Source of the DNA: an uncultured Candidatus Saccharibacteria bacterium
Lineage (GTDB): Bacteria; Patescibacteriota; Minisyncoccia; Phycocordibacterales; UBA918
Direction of reading: 5' to 3'
DNA length: 53,874 nucleotides
NCBI GenBank assembly: GCA_964350745.1
Contig: CAYGKU010000001.1
Location: forward strand, 23,470 to 77,343
The position numbers and the translations under genes were made by a program. Positions 29,070 through 46,088 of the stretch are shown here, one piece after another (position 1 is the first letter of the stretch; every line of letters starts with the position of its first letter). The notes beneath the pieces are model-generated. The model ran no database searches and was not told the origin of the DNA. It saw nothing but the letters and a program-made list of their open reading frames with translations.

Positions 29070-29141
29070 GCACCTGTGGTGAAATGGATATCACAACTGA
29101 CTTCGGATCAGTCGTTCTGGGTTCGAGTCCTGGCAGGTGCA
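29070..29141 (+). tRNA. tRNA-Arg (anticodon UCG), no encoded CCA
   Basis: Manual fold. Acceptor GCACCTG/CAGGTGC, anticodon stem ACTGA/TCAGT with loop CTTCGGA, T arm CTGGG-TTCGAGT-CCTGG, discriminator A. Confidence 0.85.
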
Positions 29142-29202
29142 CAGAAAATGTTAAAGACCAGCGATTTAGCTGGTCTTTAACATTTTCTGTGCACCTGCCA
29201 GG
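29129..29202 (+). terminator. 34-bp perfect inverted repeat that includes the last 13 nt of tRNA-Arg, followed by a T-run
   Basis: CCTGGCAGGTGCACAGAAAATGTTAAAGACCAGC-gattta-exact complement, then TGCAGGGTTTTT. Confidence 0.7.
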
Positions 29203-29612
29203 TGCAGGGTTTTTCTGTAGCGATAGCGAAAGAAAAAGCCGTAGCACGACTCGAAGCCCGATTGAGATATTTTATGAGGTGACGAAATAAAATATCCAAT
29301 TGGGGTACTGCTCCTGTTAAGGAGCGAGTCCTGGCGGGCAGCGAGTTCTTAGTAAAATGTGAGGTAACGAAACATTTTACTTAGAACTGGCGCCGAGTCC
29401 TGACAAACTAATGACATTTAAAGCAGACATCAGTCTTTACCCTAATCTTTAATAAAGTTCCATGAACATACCATGGTATGTTCATGGAATACTCAAGTAA
29501 ACAAAGAAGTAACGAATTTTTACTATAGGTCTGAGTGAATACGACAAACGCTACTTAGAATCAGCGCTAGGTCTTTTATCTTAAGTAGAAAATCCATGCT
29601 ATCATCGAACTT
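29203..29612. other. tRNA-Arg-adjacent structured non-coding tract
   Basis: No credible ORF. Hairpins at 29266-29296 and 29345-29387 have unrelated stems but loops GAGGTGACGAA and GAGGTAACGAA. A third loop is GAAGTAACGAA at 29506-29516. Partial tRNA-Arg T-arm copies lie at 29325-29335 and 29394-29402. A 32-bp palindrome lies at 29458-29489. Confidence 0.5.
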
Positions 29613-31113: not shown

Positions 31114-31223
31114 GAATAATCATAAGTTGAACATAGACATTTTATATTTATGTGGTATATTTTAATTGAATTTTAGCCTTATTTAAAGCCATATTATTTG
31201 CGCACACTACCATGAATACCCAC

Positions 31224-31236
31224 ACTTACTAAGTGT
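31224..31236. promoter_or_regulatory. Candidate NrtR operator, site A (ACTTACTAAGTGT, inside the palindrome ACACTTACTAAGTGT)
   Basis: Perfect 15-bp palindrome at 31222-31236, immediately upstream of a TTGACA -35 box. It matches site B at 12/13 positions and is related to the site upstream of nrtR. Confidence 0.4.
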
Positions 31237-31240
31237 ATGC

Positions 31241-31269
31241 TTGACACCAAGTAAGCACTTTGCTACACT
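31241..31269 (+). promoter_or_regulatory. Sigma-70-like promoter for the pncA-vWA-PP2C-kinase operon
   Basis: TTGACA (31241-31246), 17-nt spacer, TACACT (31264-31269). Confidence 0.45.
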
Positions 31270-31275
31270 CTGGGA

Positions 31276-31554
31276 CAGATAGAGAGAACCCGCACACAGG
31301 TGCGGATAAGTTCAATTTTTACATAGTGTATAAACTACACGTTCTACTATAAAGTAGAATATCTTAGAAGTTCGACTGCACATTCAGTGCAGTAATAAAA
31401 ACTACTTACTTAGTGTAGATATAACACTAATAACTTCTTTCTTTTCAGGTGGCGCGTTTTGGGGTTAAAGCCCGGAAGCGCTCCACCTCAACGGAAGGTT
31501 GAGGGTGTTCTTTGAAAATAGACAAAATTATTATCTTACAAAATGGAGAAAGTT
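31276..31554 (+). promoter_or_regulatory. Long structured 5' leader ending in a terminator-like hairpin (candidate attenuator or riboswitch)
   Basis: Several hairpins: CCGCAC/GTGCGG, GTGTA/TACAC, TTCTAC/GTAGAA, ACTGCAC/GTGCAGT, GGTGG-GCGT/GCGC-CCACC. Then CCTCAAC-GGAAG-GTTGAGG (31486-31504) followed by GTGTTCTTT, about 40 nt before the start codon. Confidence 0.35.
31404..31416. promoter_or_regulatory. Candidate NrtR operator, site B (ACTTACTTAGTGT)
   Basis: 12/13 identical to site A. Shares the 11-mer ACTTACTTAGT with the reverse strand of 42171-42181, upstream of nrtR. Confidence 0.35.
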
Positions 31555-32385
31555 ATGAAAGTTCATCTTTTAGTTATCGATCCACAAAACGATTTCATGG
31601 ATATCCCGGGAGCAGCTTTGCCGGTCCCTGGAGCCAATGAAGATATGGTTCGTTTGGCTGGTTTAGTCGATAGAGTTGGAATGAAGTTGCAAAAAATTCA
31701 CATCACGATGGATAGTCATCATCTTGTGGATATTGCTCACCCAGCGTTTTGGAGGGATGTCAATGGCACTTCCCCAGATCCGATGACAATCATCTCGGCA
31801 GAATCTATTGTTGACGGTACTTGGACGCCGCGCAGACCGGAATTGCGTGAATACGCAATTGGGTATGCAAAGCAATTGGAGGCAGATGGTCAGTATCAGG
31901 TAATGATCTGGCCAGCTCACTGCTTGATTGGTAGTTGGGGACACAATGTTCAGTCTGATTTAGCTGCGTCTCTCGATAGATGGAGCGAAAAAAGGATTCG
32001 TAATGTTGATTTTGTGACCAAGGGTACCAATGTTCTTACCGAGCATTATGGTGGTTTGCAGGCGGAGGTTCCGATTGCAAGCGACCCTTCAACTCAACTT
32101 AATGGGCGTTTCTTAGCCATGCTGCAGGAAGCCGATGTTATCGCTGTTGCTGGTGAAGCTTCTAGTCACTGTGTGAAAGCTACTGTTGAGCAAGTTGCCA
32201 ATAATATTGGCGAGGAGCACATCAAGAAGTTTCAACTTTTGACTGATGCTATGTCTCCGGTAGGAGCCGTGACCGATACACAAGGTAACGTGATCGTCGA
32301 TTTTCCAGGTATAGCAAATCAGTTTATTGCTGATATGGAAAAACGTGGAATGAAACGTACAACTACTGCTGATTTTTTAGCATAA
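31555..32385 (+). CDS. pncA: Isochorismatase-fold cysteine hydrolase, nicotinamidase (PncA)-like
   Basis: GGAG lies 6 nt before the ATG at 31555 (the ORF track starts at 31543). Asp in VIDPQNDF, Lys in FVTKG, Cys in GEASSHCV form the D-K-C triad pattern. DSHH could be the metal site. Confidence 0.65.
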   Translation: MKVHLLVIDPQNDFMDIPGAALPVPGANEDMVRLAGLVDRVGMKLQKIHITMDSHHLVDIAHPAFWRDVNGTSPDPMTIISAESIVDGTWTPRRPELREYAIGYAKQLEADGQYQVMIWPAHCLIGSWGHNVQSDLAASLDRWSEKRIRNVDFVTKGTNVLTEHYGGLQAEVPIASDPSTQLNGRFLAMLQEADVIAVAGEASSHCVKATVEQVANNIGEEHIKKFQLLTDAMSPVGAVTDTQGNVIVDFPGIANQFIADMEKRGMKRTTTADFLA

Positions 32386-32434
32386 CCACGTAGGTGCGTT
32401 TTACGCACCTACCTCTAAAAAAAGGAGATATATC

Positions 32435-33193
32435 ATGTCTAATACAACTATGGACGAGTTCCAGATTGGAAGCGGTTTTCAATTCAGCGGTGCAACTATC
32501 AATGAGTTGGAGTCGTCTGAATATACTCTGGTTACTATTGCTTTAGATGAGACTGGTTCTATCCGCGGTTATGAAGAGCAAATTCGTGACATGCTGATAG
32601 CTTCAGTTGAGGCTTGCTTTAGTTCACCTTACTCAGGAAATTTACTGGTGCGAGTGATTCGTTTTGGTTCGCAATACTCACGAAATGGTGGAGGTGGAAT
32701 TGATGAAATTCATGGGTTTAAAACCCTAAATGAAATCAAGACTGCCGATTACCCACAATTTCGTGGTGGAGGCGCCACACCATTACTTGATGCTGTTTTC
32801 TCAGGTGTTGGGGCAATGAATACTTATGCCGAAAGCTTGGATGATATGGATTTCAGCATTAACGGTATTACGTTTGTGATAACCGATGGTGGTGAAAATG
32901 ATTCTGTTGCAACTGCACAAATGGTAAAAGGAGAACTTGAAAAGTCAGTGCGGGGTGAAATTATGGAGTCTCACTTGTCGATTCTGATTGGTATTAATAC
33001 TGGTTACGGAGATGTAGAGAGCACTCTTAAGGAGTTTCAAGCTGAAACCGGAATGAATCAATTCATTTGGGCGGGAGATGCAACCAAAGGCAAGTTGGCA
33101 AAATTAGCCGAGTTTGTTTCTCAGTCTATTTCTTCAACGTCCCAGGCTCTGGGTACAGGTGGTCCGAGTAAAGATATTTCGGCAACCATTTGA
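32435..33193 (+). CDS. von Willebrand factor A (TerY-like) domain protein
   Basis: 252 aa. MIDAS-like DETGS in LVTIALDETGSI, later FVITDGGEND. AAGGAG RBS upstream. Confidence 0.75.
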   Translation: MSNTTMDEFQIGSGFQFSGATINELESSEYTLVTIALDETGSIRGYEEQIRDMLIASVEACFSSPYSGNLLVRVIRFGSQYSRNGGGGIDEIHGFKTLNEIKTADYPQFRGGGATPLLDAVFSGVGAMNTYAESLDDMDFSINGITFVITDGGENDSVATAQMVKGELEKSVRGEIMESHLSILIGINTGYGDVESTLKEFQAETGMNQFIWAGDATKGKLAKLAEFVSQSISSTSQALGTGGPSKDISATI

Positions 33194-33261
33194 ATTGTTC
33201 TTTAAAAATCTGGGAGATGCCAATGGTGTCTCCCTTTTCTTTTATGGATAAGGAGATTGTT

Positions 33262-34137
33262 ATGTTACTAAAAACAGATTTTACGTTTCATCTTGGTGAG
33301 CAACATAGGCGAATTGGGAAACCAAATCAAGACTACGCTTTAAGTGGAGTTTTGGAAAATGGTTTTGCTTACGCTATCGTTAGTGATGGTTGTTCGTCTG
33401 GCGGTATGACAGATGTCGGTTCCAGATTATTGGTTCTGGCAACTAAAAGAGCTTTTGAGACTTATGCCGTAAATCAAGAATTTCTTGGTAGAGAGGAGGC
33501 AGTAAGTGTAATTAATATGTGTCGTGACCATTATCTCGAGACTTATCGTGAGTTACTTGGATTGCAACATGAAGATCTTCTTGCTACTTGTCTTTGGGCA
33601 ATTTGTGATCAAGATTCAGTATTAGTGAATATAGTTGGTGACGGCGTTGTGGGTGTTCGATATGAGAATGAAATAGTCGTACATCGCTTTGAGTGGAATA
33701 AAAATGCTCCATATTATCCAGCTTACCGGCTTGGTAATATGAATAATCGATTCAAGGAAGTTCACGCTGAATGTAAGATTCCGTTCCTATATACCAAAAG
33801 TGTTGTTTCTCAAGAAGGTATAAACCATAGAGTTTCTGATGATACTTCTACGTATAGTGCAGAAGCTGGGATGATGGGACTGACATTTCGTATTGATTAT
33901 GTTGGTGAAAATACAGGCTCAGGAAAACTTCTTACTGTCGCTTTGTTTTCAGATGGAGTGGAGCAGGTTGAAGGACTTACGTATCTTGATGTTGTAAAGA
34001 AACTTATCGAGTACAAGAGTACTAAAGGGCAATTTGCTGTAAGGCGAATGAATCGTTTTCTTAGGGATGTCAGTAAAGTTGGACGTGGAGCGAATGACGA
34101 TATCTCATGTGCTGTTATTCAGATCGGTGAAACGTAG
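33262..34137 (+). CDS. PP2C-like protein phosphatase
   Basis: AAGGAG lies 7 nt before the ATG at 33262 (the ORF track starts at a TTG at 33190 overlapping the vWA stop). NQDYA, VSDGCSSGG, LFSDGV, NDDISC resemble the PP2C_2 type found in TerY-P triads. Confidence 0.7.
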   Translation: MLLKTDFTFHLGEQHRRIGKPNQDYALSGVLENGFAYAIVSDGCSSGGMTDVGSRLLVLATKRAFETYAVNQEFLGREEAVSVINMCRDHYLETYRELLGLQHEDLLATCLWAICDQDSVLVNIVGDGVVGVRYENEIVVHRFEWNKNAPYYPAYRLGNMNNRFKEVHAECKIPFLYTKSVVSQEGINHRVSDDTSTYSAEAGMMGLTFRIDYVGENTGSGKLLTVALFSDGVEQVEGLTYLDVVKKLIEYKSTKGQFAVRRMNRFLRDVSKVGRGANDDISCAVIQIGET

Positions 34138-34160
34138 GCGTAGATAAATAGGAGGTTACT

Positions 34161-35894
34161 ATGTCACTTATTAAGAGAAGTACTAAAGTTACCCTTGAAG
34201 GTAAAGGTGTTCTAACTCTCCGTCCAAGTGACTATGTCACGCAGGGTGGTGAGGGGGCTATTTATCGAAAGGGCGCTGATATTATTAAGTTGTATCTTGA
34301 TCCAAAAAAGATGCAGCATGATGATATTTCTAGCAAAGTTCGACTTTTAGCAAATCGGATAGACCATGCATCGATTGTTTCTCCCAAGGGTATTGTGTCT
34401 GATAATAAGGGAAATCCAATTGGTTATCACATGCCTTATGTATCTGGAGAAGCTTTTCCTCGGTTGTTTACTGGTAATTTCCGAGATCAAAACGGTTTTG
34501 GCAGTAAGCAAACTGTTACATTGACCAGTAAGATGCATGAAGTGGTGCAGTATGTGCATGGTAAGAAAATTCTTATGGTAGATGCTAACGAATTAAATTG
34601 GCTGGCAGATATTTCTGATGTTAATGATCCGGTCCCCTATGTTATCGATGTTGATTCGTGGGAGATTGGAAAATTTAAAGCGTCGGTAATAATGCCGTCA
34701 ATTCGTGATTGGCATTCTGGTGGTATAAGTGAAGAATCCGATTGGTTTGCTTGGGGTGTGGTTTCTTTCTTGCTTTTTACTGGTATTCATCCGTACAAAG
34801 GAAAACTAGACGGTTACAAACCGGGGGAACTGGAAAAAAGAATGAAAGATAACGCTTCGGTGTTTCTTCCTCAAGTGCGTCTCAATCGAGCCGTGCGTGA
34901 TTTTAAGGAAATACCTGGCCCGCTTCTTGACTGGTATCAGGCGACATTTACTGACGGTGAACGTAGTATTCCCCCATCACCTTTACAAGTTGGTGGGGGA
35001 AGAACTGCAGTAGGTCGCGTCTTTAGGACGGTAACTACAGCCACTGGCGGTTTGGTTTACGAAAAACTTTTTGAGATAGTTGGTGAAAAAGTTATATCAG
35101 TTTGGCCGTGTGGAGTACTTCGTACTGAGTCAGGGTCTTTGATAGAGTTTTCTAGTAAGAAAGTTATCGGAAAAGCTACTGGAAAAAGAGTTGCGGTTGT
35201 TTCTCGTTCTGGTGGCTGGCTGGTAGTTGAAGAAGTTGCCGGTAGTTGGCAGTGGAGATTTATTTCTCGTAAGGGAGACGAGTTCTCTCTTATTGTACCA
35301 CTCGATATCACAGGAGTTGTTCGTAGTGGTGAGCGTATATTTGCGGTTACTACCACGGAATTTGTGGAGATTGTTATACAGCAATTTCAAAAGCCGGTTA
35401 CTACTATCGGAAATCGTTGGCAGATTATGGGAAACGCAACTAACTGGTATCGAGAAATTGGTGTCAGTGATGTGCTTGGCGCGACTTACTTGATAGTGCC
35501 GTTTAACGAAGGTTCGGTAGCTATGGTTCGTGTTCCTGAATTTGATGGATTAACAACCGTTAGTGCAGTGGGTGGCGGTCGTTTTGCTGAAATTGTCACT
35601 CTCAATCAACAGGGTGAATATCAGACTCATAGCTTATCGTTTAACTCTGATTGGAATAAATACAAAGTAAGTACAAGGACAGTAGATGGTCCTGAGCAAA
35701 ATATTACTATACTTCCAAAAGGAGTAGTGGCATCAATTCCGGAAGATGAACAGTTGGTTATAACCGTTCCTTCTAAAGGAGCGCAGAAGATTGTAAATGA
35801 TAAAGATTTGGCAACTAATATGTACTTAAGTAGGATTGGTGACCAAGTTGTCTATTTAAATGACGGTGTTCTTTGGTCATTGAAAATGAACTAG
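34161..35894 (+). CDS. Atypical Ser/Thr protein kinase with a ~300-aa uncharacterised C-terminal domain
   Basis: 577 aa. Gly-rich loop QGGEGAIY, Lys in IIKLY, catalytic-loop-like MVDANELNW, DFG-equivalent VIDVDSW. The C-terminal half is beta-rich with no recognised motif. Confidence 0.7.
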   Translation: MSLIKRSTKVTLEGKGVLTLRPSDYVTQGGEGAIYRKGADIIKLYLDPKKMQHDDISSKVRLLANRIDHASIVSPKGIVSDNKGNPIGYHMPYVSGEAFPRLFTGNFRDQNGFGSKQTVTLTSKMHEVVQYVHGKKILMVDANELNWLADISDVNDPVPYVIDVDSWEIGKFKASVIMPSIRDWHSGGISEESDWFAWGVVSFLLFTGIHPYKGKLDGYKPGELEKRMKDNASVFLPQVRLNRAVRDFKEIPGPLLDWYQATFTDGERSIPPSPLQVGGGRTAVGRVFRTVTTATGGLVYEKLFEIVGEKVISVWPCGVLRTESGSLIEFSSKKVIGKATGKRVAVVSRSGGWLVVEEVAGSWQWRFISRKGDEFSLIVPLDITGVVRSGERIFAVTTTEFVEIVIQQFQKPVTTIGNRWQIMGNATNWYREIGVSDVLGATYLIVPFNEGSVAMVRVPEFDGLTTVSAVGGGRFAEIVTLNQQGEYQTHSLSFNSDWNKYKVSTRTVDGPEQNITILPKGVVASIPEDEQLVITVPSKGAQKIVNDKDLATNMYLSRIGDQVVYLNDGVLWSLKMN

Positions 35895-35914
35895 ACCAGT
35901 TCCTTGTATGACTT

Positions 35915-35945
35915 AGTCCGGAAGCTTTAGCTTCCGGACTTTTTG
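35915..35945 (+). terminator. Terminator (possibly partial) after the kinase gene
   Basis: AGTCCGGAAGC-TTTA-GCTTCCGGACT followed by TTTTT. Confidence 0.65.
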
Positions 35946-36012
35946 TAACAATTGATTAATTTGGCGGTTTAGTCTATTGTAGCCTAGGAATTTTATAAAC
36001 GGAGGAAAGATA

Positions 36013-36966
36013 ATGGATCTTTTAAATAGATATATTGGTACTTTAGTTGGTGTGCACGTAGGGGATTCGCTTGGAGCACCATACGAATATGCTTTTTCTG
36101 CCAAACAAATTGCAAAAGATATTGAAGAACGTGGAGGGTTAAAATTCTTTGATTATAAGAATCCTTGGTCGAAAGATGGTAATGGCAAAGTTCTTCCGGC
36201 TGGTCGCCCTACCGATGACTCAGACCAAACAGCTGACTTGGCTTTCAGTTTGGTTCATTGTCGTGGTCTTAACGTTGATCGTTTACGTAACTGTCTGAAA
36301 GATAGCGTTGTTCATGGTCGTAGTCGTCTTTGGTCTGGTCAGGCTACTGGTGCTGGCGGCACTACCAGAAATGCCCTTAGTGATGATGAGGTAAAAAGAC
36401 AAAAAGCATTAAGTAACAATATTGGTACAAACGGTAGCCTTATGCGTTGTTCGCCAGTGGCATTGTGGTTTGGTCCTAGTTCATCTCATGTGCCTGAAGA
36501 TTGTAAAGTAGTGTTTACTATGTCACAAGTTACTCATGCTCACACTCATTCAAAACAGGCTTGTTGGATGTATACTAAGATTCTGCAGAGGATTTTAAAC
36601 GGAGTAAGTATTTGTGGGCAAGGGTTTAAGTCGCAAAATGAAGTGGAGATTCGTATTTTTTCTCGTTTACGTGATAAGTACGACTTCCCCTATGATCCTG
36701 GTGCATGGCCCATGCGTGGTAGCGCTGAGTTTTCACTGTACGTTGCACTTTATGCTCTAGCCAATACAAGTTCATTTGCGGAGGGTATTGAGTTGGCGGT
36801 GGGTATCGGTGGTGATACGGACACGTATGCCGCTATTGCCGGAGGATTACTTGGTGCCTACTATGGTTATGATGCTATTCCAGAAAATTGGAGAAAGGCC
36901 ATTCTTGGTCATGATGTGATGGTTGATTATGCGGAAAAACTTTATGATATACGCTTAAATAAATAG
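36013..36966 (+). CDS. ADP-ribosylglycohydrolase (ARH/DraG family)
   Basis: 317 aa. N-terminal GVHVGDSLGAPYE and C-terminal GGDTDTYAAIAGGLLGAYYG are the hallmark metal-binding motifs. GGAGG RBS upstream. Confidence 0.85.
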   Translation: MDLLNRYIGTLVGVHVGDSLGAPYEYAFSAKQIAKDIEERGGLKFFDYKNPWSKDGNGKVLPAGRPTDDSDQTADLAFSLVHCRGLNVDRLRNCLKDSVVHGRSRLWSGQATGAGGTTRNALSDDEVKRQKALSNNIGTNGSLMRCSPVALWFGPSSSHVPEDCKVVFTMSQVTHAHTHSKQACWMYTKILQRILNGVSICGQGFKSQNEVEIRIFSRLRDKYDFPYDPGAWPMRGSAEFSLYVALYALANTSSFAEGIELAVGIGGDTDTYAAIAGGLLGAYYGYDAIPENWRKAILGHDVMVDYAEKLYDIRLNK

Positions 36967-36978
36967 TCCGTATAAAGA

Positions 36979-37010
36979 AAAGACCTAGAAGTAATTACTT
37001 CTAGGTCTTT
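36979..37010 (+). terminator. Terminator after the ARH gene
   Basis: AAAGACCTAGAAGT/ACTTCTAGGTCTTT. Confidence 0.7.
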
Positions 37011-37029
37011 ATTACTGTAAGAAAAAAAT

Positions 37030-37057
37030 AAAGGCGAATCATTTCTGATTCGCCTTT
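37030..37057 (-). terminator. Terminator after nadE
   Basis: AAAGGCGAATCA/TGATTCGCCTTT with a T-run on the minus strand. Confidence 0.7.
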
Positions 37058-37085
37058 GTTGTGTTTCTGCTACTTAAAAAAGAAC

Positions 37086-38990
37086 TTATTTTGCTTGGTA
37101 TTTTGGATATCCAGCACCTGCCAATTGTTTTACCAGTGCTTTGTAGCGCTGTGTTTCAATTGGTTCAAGAATACTTTCTCGGAAATCCCAACCAAACCCC
37201 CTTTTATCAATCAGTGGCCCCGGAACACTTTGAACTCGCTTATAGATTGCGTTGTGGAAAAGTTTAAAGCATCGTTCCAGGTCATTTAGCCACTCTTCTC
37301 TGTCTTTAAATAAAGCATTCAATTTCCCTTCTGGTAGTTGTAGTTCAGATTCCAGACTTCCGTCTAGGTACTTTTCTGCGAACCATTCAGGACTACGGCG
37401 AAAGGCTACAATTGCTCGTACCATTTGATCGTGATAACCTTTATGTACAAGATTACCGTAATCAAATGGGTCCCTACGCTCACCTTTACCCTGCTCCGTC
37501 AGTTCATCCATAGGAGGACGAGTAATGATAGATTGAGGAATTACTTCTCGACCATATATTTCACGGTTCATATAATCAGCTAGCCGATAAACGTCTTGCT
37601 TAAGACAATTCATCCATGGTGCAAAAAAGCCTCGAAGATCAGCGTTCAAACTGCCGTAGCCAAAAGCCAATTCCGGCATAACAGCGTTACTAACAAAAAT
37701 AGCATCTCTTTGTAAAGCAATATTTGATAGCTTGTACATACGAGCGACTGTTTGTACTGGTTTGTGTCGTGTCGTATCCGGTTCTATACCTGTACCTACA
37801 CAACTTTCGTCTACCAGTCGGTCAATACTTACTACCTGATATGAAACATTAAGCCTGCGACATAATTCTTCAGCGTCATTCTTGGTTTCTTTAGAATTAA
37901 ACGCCCTATACGGCATATTTACCGCAATGACATTTTCCGGACCAAGTAACTTGGCAAAAAATGCTACAGACAGAGCCGAATCAATGCCTCCGCTAACACC
38001 GATAACCACCTTACGTTTTACAAGCTCAGGTAGACTTTGCAGATAACCTTTAGTAGCGACTTCAATTGCTTTATACAGTTCAGTAATATCAGCAACTTCA
38101 GGTCGCACAGGTTGCACTAATTCACTTACAAGATTAACAGCTAGCGTTTCTTCTTGATATCGTTCACACATAGCTTTGATTTGTCCATCCGGCTGATAAA
38201 CAGTTGAAGCGCCATCGTATGGAATAAAGTTTTTACCGTTATTTTGGCAACCAACATTATTTACATATACAAACCATAAATTAAGATCTTTCAATAAGTT
38301 ACTAATAACTTGATCTCTCTTTTGGTTTTTACGCCAACTCCAGTTTGAGGCTGAAAGGTTTATAAGTATCTCGGCACTATTATCTTTAAGAATTCGCGCA
38401 GGTTTGATTGAATAATCAATGTCCCACATATCTTCACAAAGCATGATGCCAAGTTTATACTCAACGCCTTTTATAATGACTGTAAATGGTTTTAAGAATT
38501 CTTCTACAGGAACATCTCTTACTTCTGCAAGCTGACGTAAGCTGTAAAAGTGTCTCGAGTCATCATATATACGATAGTTTGGTAATAAGGTCTTTATTGC
38601 AAACGGTAAGCCGGCATCATTATGAATTTGCTTTCCATTTTGAGCCACAAAAGCCGCATTGTACTTCCGACGACGCCCATCCGCCCCTTTAGTGTATTGT
38701 TCATCAATACCAATACCACCAAAGATTAAGACACCATTTATTGAAGCTGATTCTCTAACGATATACTCTGCCGTTGTCACCATCTCGGCAACAAAGGCCT
38801 CGTTTTCGTATCTGTCTCCACTGATATAGGGAGAAAGCATCATTTCAGAACCAATTACAATATCAGCACTCTGCTCAACGGCTTTTTTTGCTTCCGACAG
38901 ATAACGTATGGTGTTCTTCATCGGATCATTAGCGATTTCCATCTGCACCATAGCAACACTTAATTTACTCATTTTAGCTTGATAGCTCAT
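37086..38990 (-). CDS. nadE: Glutamine-dependent NAD+ synthetase (CN-hydrolase domain plus NAD synthetase domain)
   Basis: 634 aa. N-terminal nitrilase-like domain (catalytic Cys context GIMLCEDMW). C-terminal PP-loop VVIGVSGGIDSAL. Confidence 0.85.
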   Translation of the reverse strand: MSYQAKMSKLSVAMVQMEIANDPMKNTIRYLSEAKKAVEQSADIVIGSEMMLSPYISGDRYENEAFVAEMVTTAEYIVRESASINGVLIFGGIGIDEQYTKGADGRRRKYNAAFVAQNGKQIHNDAGLPFAIKTLLPNYRIYDDSRHFYSLRQLAEVRDVPVEEFLKPFTVIIKGVEYKLGIMLCEDMWDIDYSIKPARILKDNSAEILINLSASNWSWRKNQKRDQVISNLLKDLNLWFVYVNNVGCQNNGKNFIPYDGASTVYQPDGQIKAMCERYQEETLAVNLVSELVQPVRPEVADITELYKAIEVATKGYLQSLPELVKRKVVIGVSGGIDSALSVAFFAKLLGPENVIAVNMPYRAFNSKETKNDAEELCRRLNVSYQVVSIDRLVDESCVGTGIEPDTTRHKPVQTVARMYKLSNIALQRDAIFVSNAVMPELAFGYGSLNADLRGFFAPWMNCLKQDVYRLADYMNREIYGREVIPQSIITRPPMDELTEQGKGERRDPFDYGNLVHKGYHDQMVRAIVAFRRSPEWFAEKYLDGSLESELQLPEGKLNALFKDREEWLNDLERCFKLFHNAIYKRVQSVPGPLIDKRGFGWDFRESILEPIETQRYKALVKQLAGAGYPKYQAK

Positions 38991-39011
38991 GGTAATTCTC
39001 CTTTAAAAGAA

Positions 39012-39040
39012 TGGTCCGACACTGCGAAAGTGTCGGACCA
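39012..39040 (-). terminator. Terminator after pncB
   Basis: TGGTCCGACACT-GCGAAA-GTGTCGGACCA. Confidence 0.7.
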
Positions 39041-39045
39041 AGGGT

Positions 39046-40293
39046 TTAGTACACTGTTGTTTCAGAAAATTCATTGGTATAACCAAAAATTTCTTTGGCA
39101 ACTTGGATTTCTTCTCCTGGTCCCATAGCTTTCGCTAAGTTATCAGACAGTTTTACTGTTGAGTTACCAGATGCTTCAACTAACTTCATCACTATGGATA
39201 AAGGTTTTATCAGACCAAGGTCATTGGAGTGGTTGGTTCCCCATCCAAAAGCAACTTGGATTCTTTTTCCAAACCGCCGGTGCAACTCAAGCATTTTTTG
39301 GCAATCAAGCCCGTCTGAAAAAATTATCTTTTTGTCTAACGGATTAATGCCCCTGCTTTGGTAGTCGGCAATTATTTTTTCACCTATCACAAACGGATCA
39401 CCTGAATCTTGCCTATGCCCCGACCAGTTTGATGCTATATCTGTCGGCAGTTTTTGCAAGAAAGCATCAGTACCAAAAGTGTCTGATAGCATAACAAGAG
39501 CTTCGTTGCTGTATAAACGTTCCCATTTTCTGAGTACGTCATATAGAGATTCACGAACTGCTTTTTTATTGGTGTGTCTAGAGATTGCAAATTCTGCCAT
39601 TGCGGTTTCGTGTGCTATCGAGCCCATTAATTTCACGCCGAATTTCTTGGCTAAGTGGACATTTGAAACACCTACAATATTCCCACTGGCTTCAGTTAAA
39701 AACATCTCGGTCATTTTCTCTTCCCATGGACCTGAAACTCTGCGACGAAGACCAAACAAGAGTATTTTAAGTTCTGGATGTTTCTTTAGAAAATTAATTT
39801 TCTCTTTAGCTCGTTTCATACCTTCGTCGTAGAGTGCTCGCTCGGCAATACTGTCTACCTTGGCTCTGTTGCGTCCGTATAGCTCGGCGATGATTTCAAG
39901 GAAATATATTTCCCACAAGGTTTCGTTTGTGGCTAATCCTTGTGGTTCTATAATTAGCTGATCTCCGACTTTTGTGAGTATAGGCATTTTGAGCCTGATT
40001 GTTCTCAGAAAGTTTAGAAACTCTTCTGGAAAATTTATTGTTTCAAGGTTTCTTAGGTAAGAAATATCACTTTCAGAAAAACGTAATTTTTCAACTTCCT
40101 GACATTGTTCTCGTAATTCAGATATCGACACATAGTTGGCTAACGGAACACTAGTCGTCCGGTTTTTGAAAGCCCACTTTACCTTTAAGTATGGATAATA
40201 GGTCCAGAAATAATAAAGCATAGTAAGCTTGTATTTGTCTGTCTCCATACTTGATCTAACTATTGGTGTATCTTTTTCCCATAATAATGCCAT
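39046..40293 (-). CDS. pncB: Nicotinate phosphoribosyltransferase family protein
   Basis: 415 aa. N-terminal TDKYKLTM-type motif, central GSIAHE, and an overall length typical of PncB. Distinguishing it from a nicotinamide PRTase needs a profile search. Confidence 0.7.
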   Translation of the reverse strand: MALLWEKDTPIVRSSMETDKYKLTMLYYFWTYYPYLKVKWAFKNRTTSVPLANYVSISELREQCQEVEKLRFSESDISYLRNLETINFPEEFLNFLRTIRLKMPILTKVGDQLIIEPQGLATNETLWEIYFLEIIAELYGRNRAKVDSIAERALYDEGMKRAKEKINFLKKHPELKILLFGLRRRVSGPWEEKMTEMFLTEASGNIVGVSNVHLAKKFGVKLMGSIAHETAMAEFAISRHTNKKAVRESLYDVLRKWERLYSNEALVMLSDTFGTDAFLQKLPTDIASNWSGHRQDSGDPFVIGEKIIADYQSRGINPLDKKIIFSDGLDCQKMLELHRRFGKRIQVAFGWGTNHSNDLGLIKPLSIVMKLVEASGNSTVKLSDNLAKAMGPGEEIQVAKEIFGYTNEFSETTVY

Positions 40294-40370
40294 GTTACCC
40301 TCCTATTTTATAGGTTATTGATTGATATTAAGTTGTAAAGAACAGAATTCCTCTCTGGAACTCTCAATGG

Positions 40371-40405
40371 TATCCAAGGCGACATGATATTTATCGCCTT
40401 GGATA
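40371..40405 (-). terminator. Terminator after nadM
   Basis: TATCCAAGGCGA/TCGCCTTGGATA hairpin. Confidence 0.65.
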
Positions 40406-40415
40406 GTTGTGAGAA

Positions 40416-41324
40416 TTACTGAGCTAGCCTCTCTCGTTTGTATTGTAATAACATTCTAACTAGAACTACGTGCTCCGGAGCGATAACAGAAAAGAGACTT
40501 TCATCCAAATTTCTCCATCCCAGCCAGCCGATATCGTCGCCTGCCCTCGGTTCGCCACTCATATGTTTCATCGCAAAAAAAGTTGTCATGATACCGTACT
40601 TACTTTTTTTGTAGCGAGGATCTTTAATGCGTTGGGTACCGATGTATTCAGGATTACTAACTTTTACACCCATTGCCTCTTCAATCCGTTCGCGTTTAGC
40701 GGCATCTTCGCAGGATTTGTCGTTTGGATCAACGAATCCCCCAAAGAAGCGATAGTGTTCCGATTCCTTGTCCCGTTTGCCGAGTAAGACTTTCGAAAAA
40801 TCAGCGGTATGAATTGCCATGTCAACAGTTGGATCTGTGATAGCAAACTGCGTTAGTATAGCTGCTAGCCAGCCACGTCGGAACATCGGATCATTAATAT
40901 ATTCTCCAGATATTTCCTCTCGTATCTGTGTAGCTGAGCGGTTTGGTAACTCTCTTACGTACTTTGTGTAGTATACGCCTGAGTACTTGGGAATAAAACT
41001 GTCGCGGGAACCGTACAGTACAGCTTTTTGACTAGAGCACACTCCTGATATTGTTTCATCTACAGTCACAGACCAATGTTTGCTAGATATCGGACTATCT
41101 TGTATCGGCAAGATGACTGCTTTAGGATAACGGGTCTCCAGCATCTGTTTTCTAATCTCGAACGGAAATGGATCAGAAGTATTGAAGCGAATGGTGTTGT
41201 AGCCTACCAGAATGATCATTAGTTCATGTCTTTCCGCAATGTAATCCAGAAGTGCCACATGGCCTTCATGTAATTCGTGTATTTGGAAACGCCCAACAGC
41301 AACTCCTACTTTGCTATTTTTCAT
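40416..41324 (-). CDS. nadM: Bifunctional NMN adenylyltransferase / Nudix (ADP-ribose pyrophosphatase-type) protein
   Basis: 302 aa. GRFQIHELHEGH (the (H/T)xGH nucleotidyltransferase motif). The C-terminal Nudix box GGFVDPNDKSCEDAAKRERIEEAMGV is intact. Confidence 0.8.
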   Translation of the reverse strand: MKNSKVGVAVGRFQIHELHEGHVALLDYIAERHELMIILVGYNTIRFNTSDPFPFEIRKQMLETRYPKAVILPIQDSPISSKHWSVTVDETISGVCSSQKAVLYGSRDSFIPKYSGVYYTKYVRELPNRSATQIREEISGEYINDPMFRRGWLAAILTQFAITDPTVDMAIHTADFSKVLLGKRDKESEHYRFFGGFVDPNDKSCEDAAKRERIEEAMGVKVSNPEYIGTQRIKDPRYKKSKYGIMTTFFAMKHMSGEPRAGDDIGWLGWRNLDESLFSVIAPEHVVLVRMLLQYKRERLAQ

Positions 41325-41477
41325 ACTGACTCCTTTAAGCCTAGATAAGCCCTAAAATGTTAAGGATCTGATACTTTGTGTACATCTAACACTAAGGTAT
41401 CATTACACACAAAATTTGTCAACTAGTAAATCACAGAATTGACAAAAAAGCAATTATGGGTTACTTCTTCTAAGTTT

Positions 41478-42152
41478 TTATATGGCCAACAGGGGTAATT
41501 CTTCGGTTTCTGCTGAAATAAATTCAAACAAAGCAGCTGGCCGGTTTTTTACCCCTTCTTGCATGTCCCCTGTTTCGTTTACTATATTCAGGGCCAATAT
41601 CTTCTTTCTGAAATTACGTTTATCCAGATCTTTACCCAATATGGTTTCGTAAGCCGATTGGAGTTCAGATAGAGTAAAATGTCGTGGTAGTAAATGTTGA
41701 ACTATGGTGGTGTAAGAAAGCTTCCCTTGAAGGCGTTTTATGGCCATCTCCAACATTTCATCGTGATCATAGGCCAGGTCAACAGCTTCACCTATGGGTA
41801 TAAAGTATGATTCAGGGTGTTTATAGCTGGCAGCTGCGTCAGGACGAACAAGGCCGATATAGGCCACTGATACTACACGGTTTCGTTTATCTCTTTCAAC
41901 GTCACTAAAGGTATAAAGTTGTTCTAAGGGGACATTAGCTAGTTTTGCTTTCTCCTTCAAGATACGTATACAGGCCTCTTCAGCGTTTTCACTAGGTTTT
42001 ATCAAACCTCCAAGAAAGCCAGGTTGGTTTATATAGTGAGGCGGGCGATTTACCGGACTCACCAGTACACACAATTTTTCATCAATAAAACCAAAAACAA
42101 CAATATCAACCGCAATAACCGCAAATCGTAAATTTTCCGGAGCTTTTTTCAT
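41478..42152 (-). CDS. nrtR: NrtR-type Nudix-related transcriptional regulator
   Basis: 224 aa. Nudix fold with a degenerate box (GGLIKPSENAEEACIRILKEKAKL, REUxEE lost). C-terminal winged-helix segment with FTLSELQSAYETILGKDLDKRNFRKK. Confidence 0.75.
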   Translation of the reverse strand: MKKAPENLRFAVIAVDIVVFGFIDEKLCVLVSPVNRPPHYINQPGFLGGLIKPSENAEEACIRILKEKAKLANVPLEQLYTFSDVERDKRNRVVSVAYIGLVRPDAAASYKHPESYFIPIGEAVDLAYDHDEMLEMAIKRLQGKLSYTTIVQHLLPRHFTLSELQSAYETILGKDLDKRNFRKKILALNIVNETGDMQEGVKNRPAALFEFISAETEELPLLAI

Positions 42153-42161
42153 AACGTTAGT

Positions 42162-42186
42162 TTAACACTAACTAAGTAAGTGTTAA
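42162..42186. promoter_or_regulatory. Candidate NrtR operator upstream of nrtR (autoregulation)
   Basis: TTAACACT-aactaagta-AGTGTTAA palindrome, 10-35 nt upstream of the nrtR start. Its reverse strand contains ACACTTACTTAGT, shared with sites A and B. Confidence 0.4.
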
Positions 42187-42310
42187 AGTTTAGTCACTAT
42201 TGAGCGAAAGAATTAGCCGGTTTTGTAATGCTAACGGAAGCAAACCGAACAGCGTTGTATATAACCCAAAAATGAACAATTGTCATAGTATATAATATAC
42301 AAACTTTGGT

Positions 42311-43009
42311 ATGACAAATTTGCGCGGTCAGTATAAGAAAGAAGCCTACGAGCAAGCAATAGCTTTCCGAAAACGAGGTTTTACCTACACAGAAATAGCT
42401 AAGATCTGTGATGTTTCGCGTGGCACGGTATCGAATTGGCTGAAAGATGAAGGTTTTTCTAAGCAAATAGCTGAAACAAACAAAAAAAGAGCCTACAAGG
42501 AGAACGTAGGGCGAATAAAGCTGGTAAATAAAGCCAGAAATGCTGAGCGTAATAATCAGTACAAGACAGTCTTGCGATTGGCTGGGACCGAGTACAAGAA
42601 TTACCGTACTTCCCCGCTGTTTATGGCCGGCTTGACCATTTATTTGTGTGAAGGCGATCTTAAGGATAAGAATGTCATCCGCTTGGCCAGTAGTCGTCCG
42701 GAACTGCACAAGATCTTTATTTCCTTTGCGGTTGAGTATTTGGGGGTTGAGAAATCAGATATTCGCTTCTGGCTCCTTCTCTACCCTGATATGGATGAAG
42801 TAAAATGTATGAAATATTGGAGCCGTAAGATCGGTGTTTCGGTCAGCCAATTCTATAAAAATCAGGTTTTAAACAGGTCAGACAACAAAAATAACAAAAA
42901 AACGTTGCATTTTGGCGTCGGTAATACTATAATCGGCAGTACCTTATTGAAAAAGAAATTGCAGTGCTGGGCTGATCTGGCTTCAAAAGGTTTACAAAAG
43001 AATAAATAA
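42311..43009 (+). CDS. HTH plus LAGLIDADG-like domain protein
   Basis: 232 aa. N-terminal HTH (YTEIAKICDVSRGTVSNWL). Central FMAGLTIYLCEGD resembles a LAGLIDADG motif. The stop codon abuts the first base of tRNA-Gly. Confidence 0.6.
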   Translation: MTNLRGQYKKEAYEQAIAFRKRGFTYTEIAKICDVSRGTVSNWLKDEGFSKQIAETNKKRAYKENVGRIKLVNKARNAERNNQYKTVLRLAGTEYKNYRTSPLFMAGLTIYLCEGDLKDKNVIRLASSRPELHKIFISFAVEYLGVEKSDIRFWLLLYPDMDEVKCMKYWSRKIGVSVSQFYKNQVLNRSDNKNNKKTLHFGVGNTIIGSTLLKKKLQCWADLASKGLQKNK

Positions 43010-43080
43010 GCGGCCATGGTTAAGTGGTATAATGAGTCCTTGCCAAGGATTAGTCGGGAGTTCGATTCTCCCTGGCCGCA
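43010..43080 (+). tRNA. tRNA-Gly (anticodon GCC), no encoded CCA
   Basis: Manual fold. Acceptor GCGGCCA/TGGCCGC, anticodon stem AGTCC/GGATT with loop TTGCCAA, T arm GGGAG-TTCGATT-CTCCC, discriminator A. Confidence 0.85.
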
Positions 43081-43134
43081 CTGCATAGAAAAAAGCCGGA
43101 AGAAATCCGGCTTTTTTCTATGCAGTGCGGCCAG
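43072..43134 (+). terminator. 29-bp perfect inverted repeat that includes the last 9 nt of tRNA-Gly
   Basis: CTGGCCGCACTGCATAGAAAAAAGCCGGA-agaaa-exact complement. The inner part is a classic terminator (GCCGGA/TCCGGC followed by TTTTTT). Confidence 0.7.
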
Positions 43135-43547
43135 AGCAAAGCATTTTCATGCTTTGCGTGGAGAATCGAAGCTTCGGACGATGTTTTGTGAGCTTCCTAG
43201 CGAACAAAACGAGGAGAAGCCGTCCAGGAAAGCGAGTCTATTTTGTAAGCGGAGCGAAACAAAATAGCCACTATTCCGGGACGATTCTCCCTGGCGAACC
43301 CAGAAAGTGGATACTTTCTGGGCCTTTGCCGTTCTGTAGCGAGACAGGGAGAATCGAAGAGAGTTCCGTGCGAAGTCTGATTTTGAGACACGAAGAATCA
43401 GAAGGAACGACGGGGTCGCGTAGCACAATATTTTGGAGCCTGTGAACAAAATATTGATAAGTCACAATTCTATTCTTTGTGTCACCTTGTAAGCAAAATA
43501 AGTGCATTTTATGGTGCTATTTCTGTTCTATCTACTTACAATAAGTA
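43135..43547. other. tRNA-Gly-adjacent structured non-coding tract
   Basis: Only short overlapping ORFs on both strands. Hairpins at 43183-43210, 43238-43267 and 43376-43402 have GAG...CGAA-type loops. tRNA-Gly T-arm fragments lie at 43160-43170 (rc), 43282-43295 and 43345-43358 (rc). The 11-mer TTCTGTAGCGA is shared with 29213-29223. Confidence 0.5.
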
Positions 43548-44309
43548 TTACTTAGCATCAAGCAGGATATTTAAATCTTTGATATTGACCTCTCCGTCCA
43601 GATTGAAATCGTATTTAGGATCACTTCCGGCTATATTTAGCATAAATATGCTTATATCTGCCATGGATTGTTTGCCGTCACTGTTCAGATCGGTTGAGGG
43701 GAGCTCTTTGATCACAGTATAAGTTGTTTCGATACTTTGTTGATCGGCCTTATTTTTATCAGCCGAGGTTTCGGAGTCGTCGACTGTAATAATAGTGCTG
43801 ATCGGTTTGGTCAGATCAGCGTCGGTCCCCAGGCCGTCATGAAGTAGAATTCTAGACTTATTTAAGCTGATGGCCCCCTTACCGGTTTGCAGAGTTTCAA
43901 AAGTTACGGTGATAAGACTTCCTTCACCTGAAAAACCGCCATCTCTAGTGGTTCCGCCGGTAAAATTCATGGTACCGGCCCCGTTGCTGTACCAAGGTTC
44001 TTCCGCCCACAGGTCGGCCATATCGGTGTTGTAGTCAATAGATCTAATAGCTAGCACATTGTGGTCAAAATTAAGCTCACCATGGAAAACATTGACTGGA
44101 ACTGTTGATCTTACCGTAATGTGTATATCAAAAGTATCGCCAATGGTAGTCACCTTAGTTGTCGGTTCTATCTCCATACTAACCCCCTCCTTTTCTTTAT
44201 CAGGTAATATTGAAATACCGAATACGGCAATAATTGCCAAAAAGGCGCTGGCGGCCAGAGCGGCTTGAGCCACGGCTCCCTTCTTTAAAAATTTAAGATC
44301 AAAATGCAT
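43548..44309 (-). CDS. Cohesin-like plus dockerin domain protein
   Basis: 253 aa with an N-terminal anchor/signal. Cohesin-like beta domain. The C-terminus has two Ca-binding dockerin repeats, DLNSDGKQSMADISIFML and DFNLDGEVNIKDLNILLD. Confidence 0.7.
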   Translation of the reverse strand: MHFDLKFLKKGAVAQAALAASAFLAIIAVFGISILPDKEKEGVSMEIEPTTKVTTIGDTFDIHITVRSTVPVNVFHGELNFDHNVLAIRSIDYNTDMADLWAEEPWYSNGAGTMNFTGGTTRDGGFSGEGSLITVTFETLQTGKGAISLNKSRILLHDGLGTDADLTKPISTIITVDDSETSADKNKADQQSIETTYTVIKELPSTDLNSDGKQSMADISIFMLNIAGSDPKYDFNLDGEVNIKDLNILLDAK

Positions 44310-44476
44310 AATCTAATTATAGTGTAATTAAAGTCATTTTAATTGCAGAAATAGCGAAGTTGTTGAAAACTGTGGAAAAGACAGTGTATAGGTGGATAAA
44401 GGACAAATATGATAAAAGACAAAAGTATTGAAAATCAAGGTTATTTCATATTTGGCTCCAAAAATTAGTAAATAAC

Positions 44477-45059: not shown

Positions 45060-45099
45060 GTTCTCTACTGTAAAGTACATACCCAACGTTATTTTGTAG
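44677..45099 (+). CDS. yraN: YraN-family (UPF0102) PD-(D/E)xK endonuclease-like protein
   Basis: 140 aa. GELGEKIAGNYLKNKGFEII, GEIDIV, FVEVKT are typical YraN motifs. Confidence 0.8.
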   Translation: MLHVQPKLSNKVKNKQIGELGEKIAGNYLKNKGFEIIEYNYLKKWGEIDIVTRRTDKIHFVEVKTVSYETKQQLDEAVTRRTWRPEENVHAFKLIKLSRAIESWLLDNRSENEWQIDVIAVRVVPREKFSTVKYIPNVIL

Positions 45100-45203
45100 T
45101 TCTCTGTATTACTGATTAGAGTTACAGTGTTGAGTTTTCAAGGTATATTAAAATCGGCAGTTATATACTTGACACACCCAATCAAATAGTATAAGATAGG
45201 GTT

Positions 45204-46085: not shown

Positions 46086-46088
46086 TAT

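Follow-up and report, generated by a model that had tools for sequence, protein, structure and literature searches.

What does a module made of a vWA protein (with the type A domain of von Willebrand factor), a PP2C-type phosphatase and a protein kinase do beside the genes of NAD+ salvage? The question is raised by a locus in a 53,874-nucleotide stretch from an uncultured Candidatus Saccharibacteria bacterium (assembly GCA_964350745.1, contig CAYGKU010000001.1, positions 23,470 to 77,343; the whole stretch is hereafter called the window), where a first-pass annotation had seen such a triad, together with an ADP-ribosylglycohydrolase (ARH), coupled to a nicotinamide-to-NAD+ route associated with the regulator NrtR. 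Examination of more than 100 loci established that the conserved unit is a four-gene tetrad, ISO-VWA-PP2C-KIN, and not a triad, and that the nicotinamidase-like ISO is its obligate first member. The coupling to the NAD+ route withstood the comparison: NAD genes lie near the tetrad in 35/43 well-flanked loci, an NrtR-type operator is shared, and in phages the tetrad is interleaved with pncB and nadE. We consider it probable that the tetrad forms an ADP-ribose-inducible, phospho-switch-gated entry step of deamidating (Preiss-Handler) NAD+ salvage, which is also found in huge phages as a candidate NAD+ reconstitution route.

The tetrad unit of the window comprises the following features (positions are those of the window).

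31555-32385, plus strand: ISO, nicotinamidase-like amidohydrolase of 276 aa, first gene of the tetrad (PDB match, alignment with PncA, database gene)
32435-33193, plus strand: VWA, TerY/YegL-like vWA protein with an intact metal ion-dependent adhesion site (MIDAS) (AlphaFold2/Foldseek, residue conservation)
33262-34137, plus strand: PP2C-type Ser/Thr phosphatase (PP2C_2 PF13672, E=6.5e-19)
34161-35894, plus strand: KIN, Ser/Thr kinase of the eukaryotic protein kinase fold (residues ~1-280) with a C-terminal beta-propeller (residues ~295-577) (motifs, AlphaFold2/Foldseek)
35915-35940, plus strand: intrinsic terminator closing the tetrad unit, between KIN and ARH (11-bp stem with 7 G-C pairs, T-run)

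The four-gene tetrad

The locus set came from a kinase-alignment scan with one genome per species, which gave 80 loci, and the order and strand of the four genes were identical in every locus with enough upstream sequence (71/80). Most of these loci belong to Patescibacteria (candidate phyla radiation, CPR); the others include two cultured Bradyrhizobium species and several metagenome-assembled genomes (MAGs) labelled proteobacterial or cyanobacterial, and the distribution is patchy, across phyla. In an exhaustive search, the kinase-propeller family had at least 772 representatives at 50% identity (E<=1e-30), nearly all of 550-600 aa. The nine open reading frames (ORFs) that the first-pass annotation had named are all present in the window's ORF list, on the strands it gave. 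Starts at 31555 for ISO and 33262 for PP2C were preferred over the longest-ORF starts, since AGGAG/GGAGG ribosome-binding sites precede them; 276 aa is also the length of ISO in the database gene.

All nine gene assignments hold, by different routes. Profile searches supported PP2C, ARH, nadE, pncB and nrtR, and nadM-Nudix weakly; ISO, VWA and KIN were not supported by profiles alone and were assigned from motifs and structure. A profile search of Pfam returned zero matches for the window's ISO. Among solved structures, its best matches are nicotinamidases (PDB 2h0r, E=6.5e-6), some ISO homologues reach PF00857, and the JGI label for the homologues is nicotinamidase/pyrazinamidase. The catalytic residues D13/K160/C210, the metal site D57/H59/H66 and the WPxHC signature align with those of canonical, Pfam-positive PncAs from the same locus set, and all are kept from CPR to phage copies. 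ISO therefore shares with canonical PncA (isochorismatase superfamily, PF00857) the Asp-Lys-Cys triad, the Asp-His-His metal site and WPxHC, but differs from it in an extra insertion of ~50 residues after the metal site, a C-terminal extension, sub-threshold Pfam scores and in being always encoded with VWA-PP2C-KIN, sometimes alongside a canonical PncA. It is the most conserved of the four tetrad proteins, at up to 84% identity. These features suggest a metal-dependent nicotinamidase-type amidase, and we infer that nicotinamide is its substrate. The gene that the first-pass annotation described as 'PncA-like' is more than one further salvage gene, being the obligate first gene of the tetrad.

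The window's VWA matched neither Pfam nor any PDB sequence; Pfam gave one weak VWA match among 26 family members, and a PDB profile search gave none. Its confident AlphaFold2 model (pLDDT 86, on the predicted local distance difference test) had overwhelmingly vWA/integrin I-domains among its top 50 Foldseek matches, at probability 1.0. The MIDAS is invariant (D38-x-T-G-S42, T115 and D151; D-x-[ST]-G-S across the family). Residues 227-252 form a Ser-rich C-terminal helix and tail, the signature of which, F[VI]SxS[IV]S[SA]xS...G.G..S, is common to all lineages, phage copies included. The label 'YegL' comes from some source names, and membership in the TerY subfamily is taken from those names only, YegL being a TerY-type COG.

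The metal-binding aspartates of PP2C are all invariant. KIN reached 20 bits against Pfam Pkinase, under the threshold of 31.7, and was assigned from its invariant motifs (a GGEG G-loop, K43, D141/N146 and the DxD of Asp163-x-Asp165) and a protein-kinase fold in AlphaFold2/Foldseek. Its C-terminal ~280 aa are confidently predicted as an all-beta domain of about 28 strands, the best matches of which are the kinase-WD40 proteins LRRK2/LRRK1 and the clathrin propeller. From CPR to phage copies, the MIDAS, the PP2C aspartates and the K/D/N/DxD residues of the kinase are retained. No PADLOC model matched VWA or PP2C, KIN had only marginal matches to PD-T4-6 and mad6, and TerY-P was not matched. Two hairpins were also observed within the tetrad operon, after ISO (32390-32412, plus strand) and after VWA (33212-33234, plus strand), the second followed by TTTTCTTTT; through them, ISO-VWA may be expressed at another level than PP2C-KIN.

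Linkage to NAD+ salvage in Patescibacteria and huge phages

CPR bacteria usually lack de novo NAD synthesis. Downstream of the tetrad, the window encodes ARH and, on the opposite strand, a set of salvage genes.

36013-36966, plus strand: ARH, DraG/Tri1-like ADP-ribosylglycohydrolase (ADP_ribosyl_GH PF03747, E=1.6e-46; matches to PDB 2cwc, Tri1 and DraG)
37086-38990, minus strand: nadE, glutamine-dependent NAD+ synthetase (CN_hydrolase and NAD_synthase)
39046-40293, minus strand: pncB, nicotinate phosphoribosyltransferase (NAPRTase; TIGR01514, 297.8 bits against a cut-off of 269.55)
40416-41324, minus strand: NadM-like adenylyltransferase with Nudix domain (CTP_transf_like, E=1.4e-3, and NUDIX, both weak)
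41478-42152, minus strand: nrtR, Nudix-related transcriptional regulator (NrtR_WHD PF21906, E=8.6e-25; NUDIX, E=3.5e-6)

The nrtR product matched NF050029 at E=1.3e-31, yet under its cut-off, and nadM-Nudix lay far under the cut-offs of the NadM bifunctional models. The matches weakly support a NadM-like protein, of putative nicotinate mononucleotide (NaMN) or nicotinamide mononucleotide (NMN) specificity, for the adenylyltransferase step of the Preiss-Handler route.

The adjacency of the tetrad to NAD genes is not unique to this contig. When NAD genes were counted within 10 kb of well-flanked loci (at least 4 kb on either side; n=43), pncB, nrtR or nadE was present in 35/43 (81%), with pncB in 30, nrtR in 23 and nadE in 18; by our own estimate, a 20-kb interval in a ~1 Mb genome would capture a given single-copy operon by chance in a few percent of cases. 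Unbiased clustering of neighbouring ORFs likewise returned pncB (38), nrtR (34), nadE (25), NMN adenylyltransferase (NMNAT)-like genes (17), NAD kinase (12), NH3-type NadE (5), NadR-like genes (5) and PnuC (4), as well as canonical PncA in 7 loci, with 3 more found via a seed. The tetrad and the NAD genes are convergent in the window, L001, L004 and L005, co-directional in the order nrtR > tetrad > nadD > pncB > nadE in L012, L013, L034 and L042, and divergent in L003, L046 and L047; because the arrangements vary, we conclude that selection, and not the common descent of a single layout, keeps the linkage. The recurrent partners outside NAD metabolism were a TrmB-like helix-turn-helix (HTH) regulator in 11 loci, a GIY-YIG protein in 8 and a single cluster of antisense ORFs that is apparently spurious. 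A Nuc_deoxyri_tr2 + Nudix protein (nucleoside 2-deoxyribosyltransferase-like) is also repeatedly encoded close to the tetrad, in CPR as well as in phage loci (L014, L017, L021, L052, L085, L099, L104 and L107), and may be a further pyridine-nucleotide-processing partner.

Beyond position, the tetrad and the salvage genes share candidate operators, which are listed below without strand together with a leader structure.

31230-31250: distal NrtR-type box, 2 mismatches, overlapping the -35 element TTGACA (31241) of the best tetrad promoter candidate
31323-31343: second NrtR-type box, core AGTGT-N7-ACACG (pattern search)
31410-31430: perfect 21-bp NrtR-type palindrome TTAGTGTAGATATAACACTAA, 0 mismatches, ~125 bp upstream of the ISO start
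31446-31520, plus strand: structured leader of two adjoining hairpins followed by the invariant TGTTCTTTGA, between the NrtR boxes and the ISO start
41375-41395: NrtR-type box, 1 mismatch, ~50 bp upstream of nadM-Nudix
42151-42171: degenerate NrtR-type box, 3 mismatches, at the nrtR start, adjoined by the palindrome TTAACACT-N9-AGTGTTAA

NrtR sites are 21-bp palindromes with a GT-N7-AC core from which ADP-ribose, the ligand, releases the regulator (Rodionov et al. 2008, PMC2330246), and the form of the window's boxes equals the consensus published there. The consensus box is TTAGTGT-N7-ACACTAA; in the window, 7 instances of its core pattern were counted where 1.46 would be expected, and 0/100 shuffles reached this number. 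The distal box has a conserved counterpart, TTTGTGTATACTTGACACTAA, in relatives, and the box at the nrtR start is a candidate autoregulation site. Across loci, counting upstream intergenic regions at <=1 mismatch, the box precedes ISO in 29/57 cases (51%), nrtR in 16/24 (67%), pncB in 13/31 (42%), nadE in 6/20 and pnuC in 4/4, compared with 26/675 control genes (4%) and 0-3% of the internal tetrad genes. In two loci, the box is present with neither NrtR nor an NAD gene detected in the upstream sequence within reach (L025, with ARH and nadE downstream, and L026, with none downstream), which argues for regulon membership beyond mere adjacency. The tetrad is thus predicted to belong to the NrtR regulon and to be transcribed as one unit from the ISO promoter.

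The two-hairpin leader shows compensatory changes in 12/18 predicted pairs and is present in 13/73 loci, all of the window's clade. The 430-bp ISO leader matched no known riboswitch in Rfam at E<=1, and the two hairpins are a candidate attenuator, riboswitch or other cis-regulatory RNA. The element TGTTCTTTRAAAA has just two exact copies in the 54-kb window, both within the tetrad on the plus strand (31506-31518 and 33196-33208), and the second, at the VWA/PP2C junction, is not conserved in relatives. At a distance of 20-100 nt, the motif GTTCTTT[GA]A is found upstream of ISO in 7/60 cases, of pncB in 5/37 and of nadK in 2/12, compared with 10/844 for other genes; a second operator and a site of RNA processing are both conceivable roles.

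The tetrad, or part of it, also occurs in phages and on plasmids. A tblastn search detected full-length kinase homologues in two genomes recorded as 'uncultured phage' (485 and 595 kb) and in ~800-kb Variovorax megaplasmids; in a third phage record (462 kb), the match was limited to the kinase domain. The 485- and 595-kb phages have the complete tetrad in its usual order, interrupted by other genes. A scan of IMG/VR added 26 viral contigs, some of which are duplicates from different samples and the viral status of which is predicted; 23/26 have all four tetrad genes and 16 have NAD enzymes in the locus. In L096, the six genes ISO-VWA-PncB-NadE-PP2C-KIN are contiguous or overlapping on one strand and adjoin a homing endonuclease and a head-tail adaptor-like gene; the corresponding orders are ISO-VWA-PP2C-PncB-NadE-KIN in L101, ISO-VWA-NadE-PP2C-NMNAT-KIN in L112 and NadM-Nudix-ISO-VWA-PP2C-KIN-PncB in L105. 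Two PncA seeds found no canonical PncA in the phage operons, which leaves ISO as the only candidate for the first step there.

The Variovorax plasmids share only PP2C-KIN, followed downstream by pncB, a NADAR protein and an NAD+ synthase, and the proteins at the ISO and VWA positions showed no homology to ISO and VWA by hhalign. In one of them (L084, Variovorax sp. SRS16 plasmid 2, 606646-628367), the PP2C-kinase(propeller) pair follows an unrelated 304-aa protein and precedes pncB, AlkB, an NTP pyrophosphohydrolase, the NADAR protein and the NAD+ synthase; the same switch may here have another set of partners.

In the first-pass annotation, PncA to ARH had been read as a single gene string, in which the triad and ARH would sense or reverse protein ADP-ribosylation and then rebuild NAD+, ARH being the enzyme that carries out the response. 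The profile match identifies ARH as a genuine ADP-ribosylglycohydrolase; its gene is placed between the tetrad and nadE in the window, L001, L005 and L009-L011 and within the NAD operon in L003, and in L010 an NrtR-type box precedes it. Clustering of nrtR with draG is known in Streptomyces (PMC2330246), and systems combining an ADP-ribosylglycohydrolase (ARG), a Nudix transcription factor and a vWA protein have been proposed as counters to viral ADP-ribosyltransferases (PMC9503650). However, ARH is present in only 8/82 cellular and 0/29 viral or plasmid loci and is limited to the window's clade plus L003 and L025. The strong terminator at 35915-35940 splits KIN from ARH, and only 1/7 ARH genes has an upstream box, the window's ARH having none. 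The proposed ARG systems, moreover, use rhodanese-, calcineurin-, HD- or HAD-type phosphatases and have no kinase, PP2C or nicotinamidase (PMC9503650). Because ARH is rare, lies behind a terminator and lacks a box in the window, sensing or reversing ADP-ribosylation is not the core function, and a circuit with ARH as its output is very improbable in our estimation. ARH is a peripheral, clade-specific accessory gene with its own transcription unit.

A proposed gated entry step, its rivals and the genomic setting

How might the tetrad work? In the reading that we favour, ISO would convert nicotinamide to nicotinate for PncB, and a NadM/NadD-type adenylyltransferase and NadE would complete NAD+. 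VWA, through its MIDAS, would form with PP2C and KIN a TerY-P-like reversible phosphorylation switch, and the beta-propeller of KIN would be a likely sensor, input or docking domain. The switch would gate ISO, or flux through the pathway, by toggling a MIDAS-dependent interaction. As judged from its invariance, the likeliest phospho-acceptor would be the Ser-rich helix and tail at the C-terminus of VWA. Allosteric control of the MIDAS in integrin I-domains has the C-terminal helix as its lever; by this analogy, we speculate that phospho-control of the VWA helix would be an attractive arrangement. In Patescibacteria, a build-up of ADP-ribose, the signature of NAD+ cleavage, would induce the tetrad from its promoter, which NrtR operators overlap, along with pncB, nadE and nadM. 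In huge phages, the tetrad with interleaved pncB, nadE and NMNAT would constitute a phage-borne NAD+ reconstitution route. The first-pass annotation had also suggested a response to NADase attack; this is plausible, but the presence of the module in huge phages suggests NAD+ reconstitution as much as host defence.

Apart from the viral status of the IMG/VR contigs, which is predicted, several observations weigh against such a gated entry step. In 8/43 well-flanked cellular loci, the tetrad has no nearby NAD genes, and about half of the ISO upstream regions lack a box at <=1 mismatch. ISO scored 27 bits against the PncA model PRK11609 of NCBIfam, for which the cut-off is 174. Canonical PncA (PF00857) stands beside ISO in at least 10 loci, so that ISO may not be the nicotinamidase of the pathway or may act on another amide. 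The Bradyrhizobium elements (L055, L057 and L088-L090) carry the tetrad without NAD genes in a region resembling a prophage or an island. The reading also does not account for the need of a kinase, a phosphatase and a vWA protein at a salvage step, its phospho-acceptor is assigned from conservation, and every step of the mechanism is proposed from sequence and predicted structure.

The co-occurrence with canonical PncA leads to the alternative that ISO acts on a different amide, such as NMN, nicotinamide riboside, an ADP-ribose-derived compound or a modified base, and that the tetrad makes or removes a signalling or toxic pyridine metabolite, its NAD neighbourhood reflecting shared substrates instead of a linear pathway. 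The conserved insertion and the C-terminal extension of ISO, neither of which is found in PncA, the lack of a Pfam match for the window's ISO and the recurrence of the Nuc_deoxyri_tr2 + Nudix genes in CPR and phage loci are consistent with this idea. Against it, the full nicotinamidase-specific signature (D-K-C triad, D-x-H...H metal site and WPxHC) is invariant, nicotinamidases are the best solved-structure matches of ISO, and the phage operons combine ISO with pncB, nadE and NMNAT and yielded no canonical PncA to the two seeds. We regard another substrate as quite unlikely.

The Bradyrhizobium elements bring in a different possibility, namely that the tetrad is a stand-alone TerY-P-like conflict system, either anti-phage or inter-element, in which the propeller-kinase senses infection and ISO is an effector that destroys nicotinamide, thereby starving the phage NAD+ reconstitution pathways NARP1 and NARP2, while the host recovers the nicotinate via PncB and NadE. 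This would explain the adjacency of the tetrad to pncB/nadE, and nicotinamide is indeed used by NARP1 and NARP2 according to the NARP sources cited below. TerY-P-like modules are validated anti-phage systems (PMC7699616, PMC11090510). The Bradyrhizobium tetrad shares its region with genes for a radical-SAM protein, a Dam methylase, an exonuclease of RNase_T type, a HerA-like ATPase and an integrase, the same elements are called viral in IMG/VR (L088-L090), and the patchy cross-phylum distribution and a Fic/DOC neighbour in L079 point in the same direction. The contexts of the loci outside CPR (L030, L062 and L079), however, are heterogeneous and gave no consistent defence-island signal; PADLOC had no match for VWA or PP2C and none to a TerY-P model; and ISO, which shows the highest conservation within the tetrad, does not resemble a fast-evolving defence effector. 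The CPR tetrad is co-regulated with housekeeping salvage genes through NrtR boxes, and the phage tetrad is interleaved with the biosynthetic pncB, nadE and NMNAT in one operon, which points to making NAD+ and not to withholding it. A conflict system is thus, in our judgement, unlikely. The Bradyrhizobium elements also have an extra ORF of ~128 aa between PP2C and KIN, and the small ORFs at this position in Bradyrhizobium and in phage L085 showed no homology to each other.

Returning to the gated salvage step, we hold more tentatively, and lean somewhat against, a broader proposal: that the tetrad with pncB, nadE and NMNAT is a fourth kind of NAD+ reconstitution pathway, deamidating and post-translationally gated, which is common to huge phages and ultra-small CPR bacteria and the switch of which senses NAD+ collapse or NADase-type immunity and turns on nicotinamide recycling. 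If true, this would be the first metabolic output for a TerY-P-like triad and the first NAD+ salvage route under Ser/Thr phosphorylation control in prokaryotes or their viruses.

With regard to the genomic setting, the window is part of a cellular chromosome of Patescibacteria (Paceibacteria-like), and the locus is flanked by genes for polynucleotide phosphorylase (PNPase), a CCA-adding enzyme, a ClpB-like ATPase, ComM, CorA and an extracytoplasmic function (ECF) sigma factor, and the nearest homologues of the locus proteins are in MAGs of Kaiserbacteria, Nomurabacteria and Paceibacteria. A phage origin was ruled out by these cellular-type flanking genes and by the lack of a near DNA match in phage records. 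The region had also been described as an island bounded by tRNA-Arg and tRNA-Gly. Those tRNAs, at 29070-29142 and 43010-43081, are both outside the span of 31222-42186, and unrelated genes (a methyltransferase, a HIT protein, a cupin and an HTH protein) lie between them and the locus; GC content is flat across the region (0.38-0.43) and therefore bears no island mark, and the flanks differ in relatives. A tRNA-bounded island was ruled out on these grounds, and the region is a regulon cluster.

Some further elements of the window were observed. Directly after tRNA-Arg, a long near-perfect hairpin (29128-29205), which Rfam miRNA-precursor models match on both strands below gathering scores, is probably a terminator or palindromic repeat. 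Just past nrtR (42311-47015) lie mobile-element-type genes, namely an HTH_23 protein of 232 aa that abuts tRNA-Gly, a transposase of the IS1595 family (45204-46085) and a protein with a Bro-N domain (46089-47015), and an overlapping antisense ORF of 170 aa (42197-42709) is probably spurious. A 409-aa protein at 16246-17475 (plus strand) matches Pfam MATCAP, the microtubule-associated tyrosine carboxypeptidase (E=1e-28), a family unusual for a CPR bacterium.

Relation to known systems

A close known counterpart of the switch is the TerY-P triad of vWA, PP2C and kinase, which was reportedly defined by Anantharaman, Iyer and Aravind in 2012. Like that triad, the tetrad combines a MIDAS vWA protein, a PP2C and a Ser/Thr kinase in that order in a tight cassette, and both are probably metal- and phosphorylation-dependent switches. 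The tetrad differs in its obligate fourth, nicotinamidase-like gene, in the absence of a PADLOC TerY-P match and in its context, which is NAD+ salvage and, in part, huge phages instead of tellurite resistance, restriction or CoCoNuT systems; as first annotated, the window's triad has no tellurite-resistance partners. The kinases also differ at their C-termini: according to PMC11090510, TerY-P kinases carry a zinc ribbon (classic) or an OB-fold (the defence type of Gao 2020), whereas KIN carries a beta-propeller of ~280 aa. The statement in the first-pass annotation that TerY-P was defined only computationally and that its output is unknown is out of date, since TerY-P-like modules have been shown to be anti-phage (Gao et al. 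2020, as cited in PMC7699616 and PMC11090510).

In the parts of the literature consulted, TerY-P, although a validated anti-phage module, is given no molecular target or output. The locus type described here would tie a TerY-P-like phospho-switch to a metabolic pathway for the first time, giving it a concrete partner that can be assayed, namely a nicotinamidase that supplies PncB and NadE, as well as a defined transcriptional input, NrtR with ADP-ribose. A literature search, for which most subscription-journal papers were not searchable, found no earlier description of the tetrad/NAD combination. The locus type extends over CPR bacteria, prophages, a megaplasmid and phages of up to ~600 kb; that it spans CPR and huge phages was not expected, and it has a bearing on the way in which CPR bacteria handle the essential cofactor NAD.

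The regulatory part of the locus resembles the NrtR regulons described by Rodionov et al. (2008, PMC2330246) in having a Nudix and winged-helix NrtR, the gene content of salvage pathway I and 21-bp GT-N7-AC operators before pncB, nadE, nadM, pnuC and nrtR. To this, the present regulon adds a four-gene signalling/enzyme cassette, where the extras in PMC2330246 are only the unexplained nrtX-nrtY and draG, and a lineage, Patescibacteria, outside the coverage of that study. Our loci also resemble the ARG-centric systems of Iyer et al. (2022, PMC9503650), which combine an ADP-ribosylglycohydrolase with a Nudix-HTH (NrtR-like) regulator and, in some cases, with a vWA 'chaperone' and a phosphatase, and for which induction by ADP-ribose has been proposed. 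Unlike in those systems, ARH is dispensable here, PP2C is paired with a kinase, the conserved partners are a nicotinamidase and NAD biosynthesis genes, and the lineages are others.

The depletion and reconstitution of NAD+ is a main battleground of bacteria and phages, on which three phage pathways are known: NARP1 (Adps and Namat), NARP2 (Nampt and Nmnat) and NARP3 (PnuC and NadR), as given in bioRxiv 10.1101/2024.02.11.579819 and PMC13464706. When the window was compared with these enzyme pairs, its phosphoribosyltransferase proved to be a NAPRTase equivalog (TIGR01514) and not Nampt, and no PnuC/NadR was found; Adps and Namat were not specifically searched. The phage tetrad loci are like NARP1-3 in being phage-encoded multi-gene routes that would rebuild NAD+ from breakdown products or precursors, and the route predicted from their genes is complete from nicotinamide onwards. 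It is unlike them in being deamidated, leading from nicotinamidase through NAPRTase and adenylyltransferase to NAD synthetase, and in its layer of kinase, phosphatase and vWA protein; none of the three NARPs is deamidated or has such a regulatory layer.

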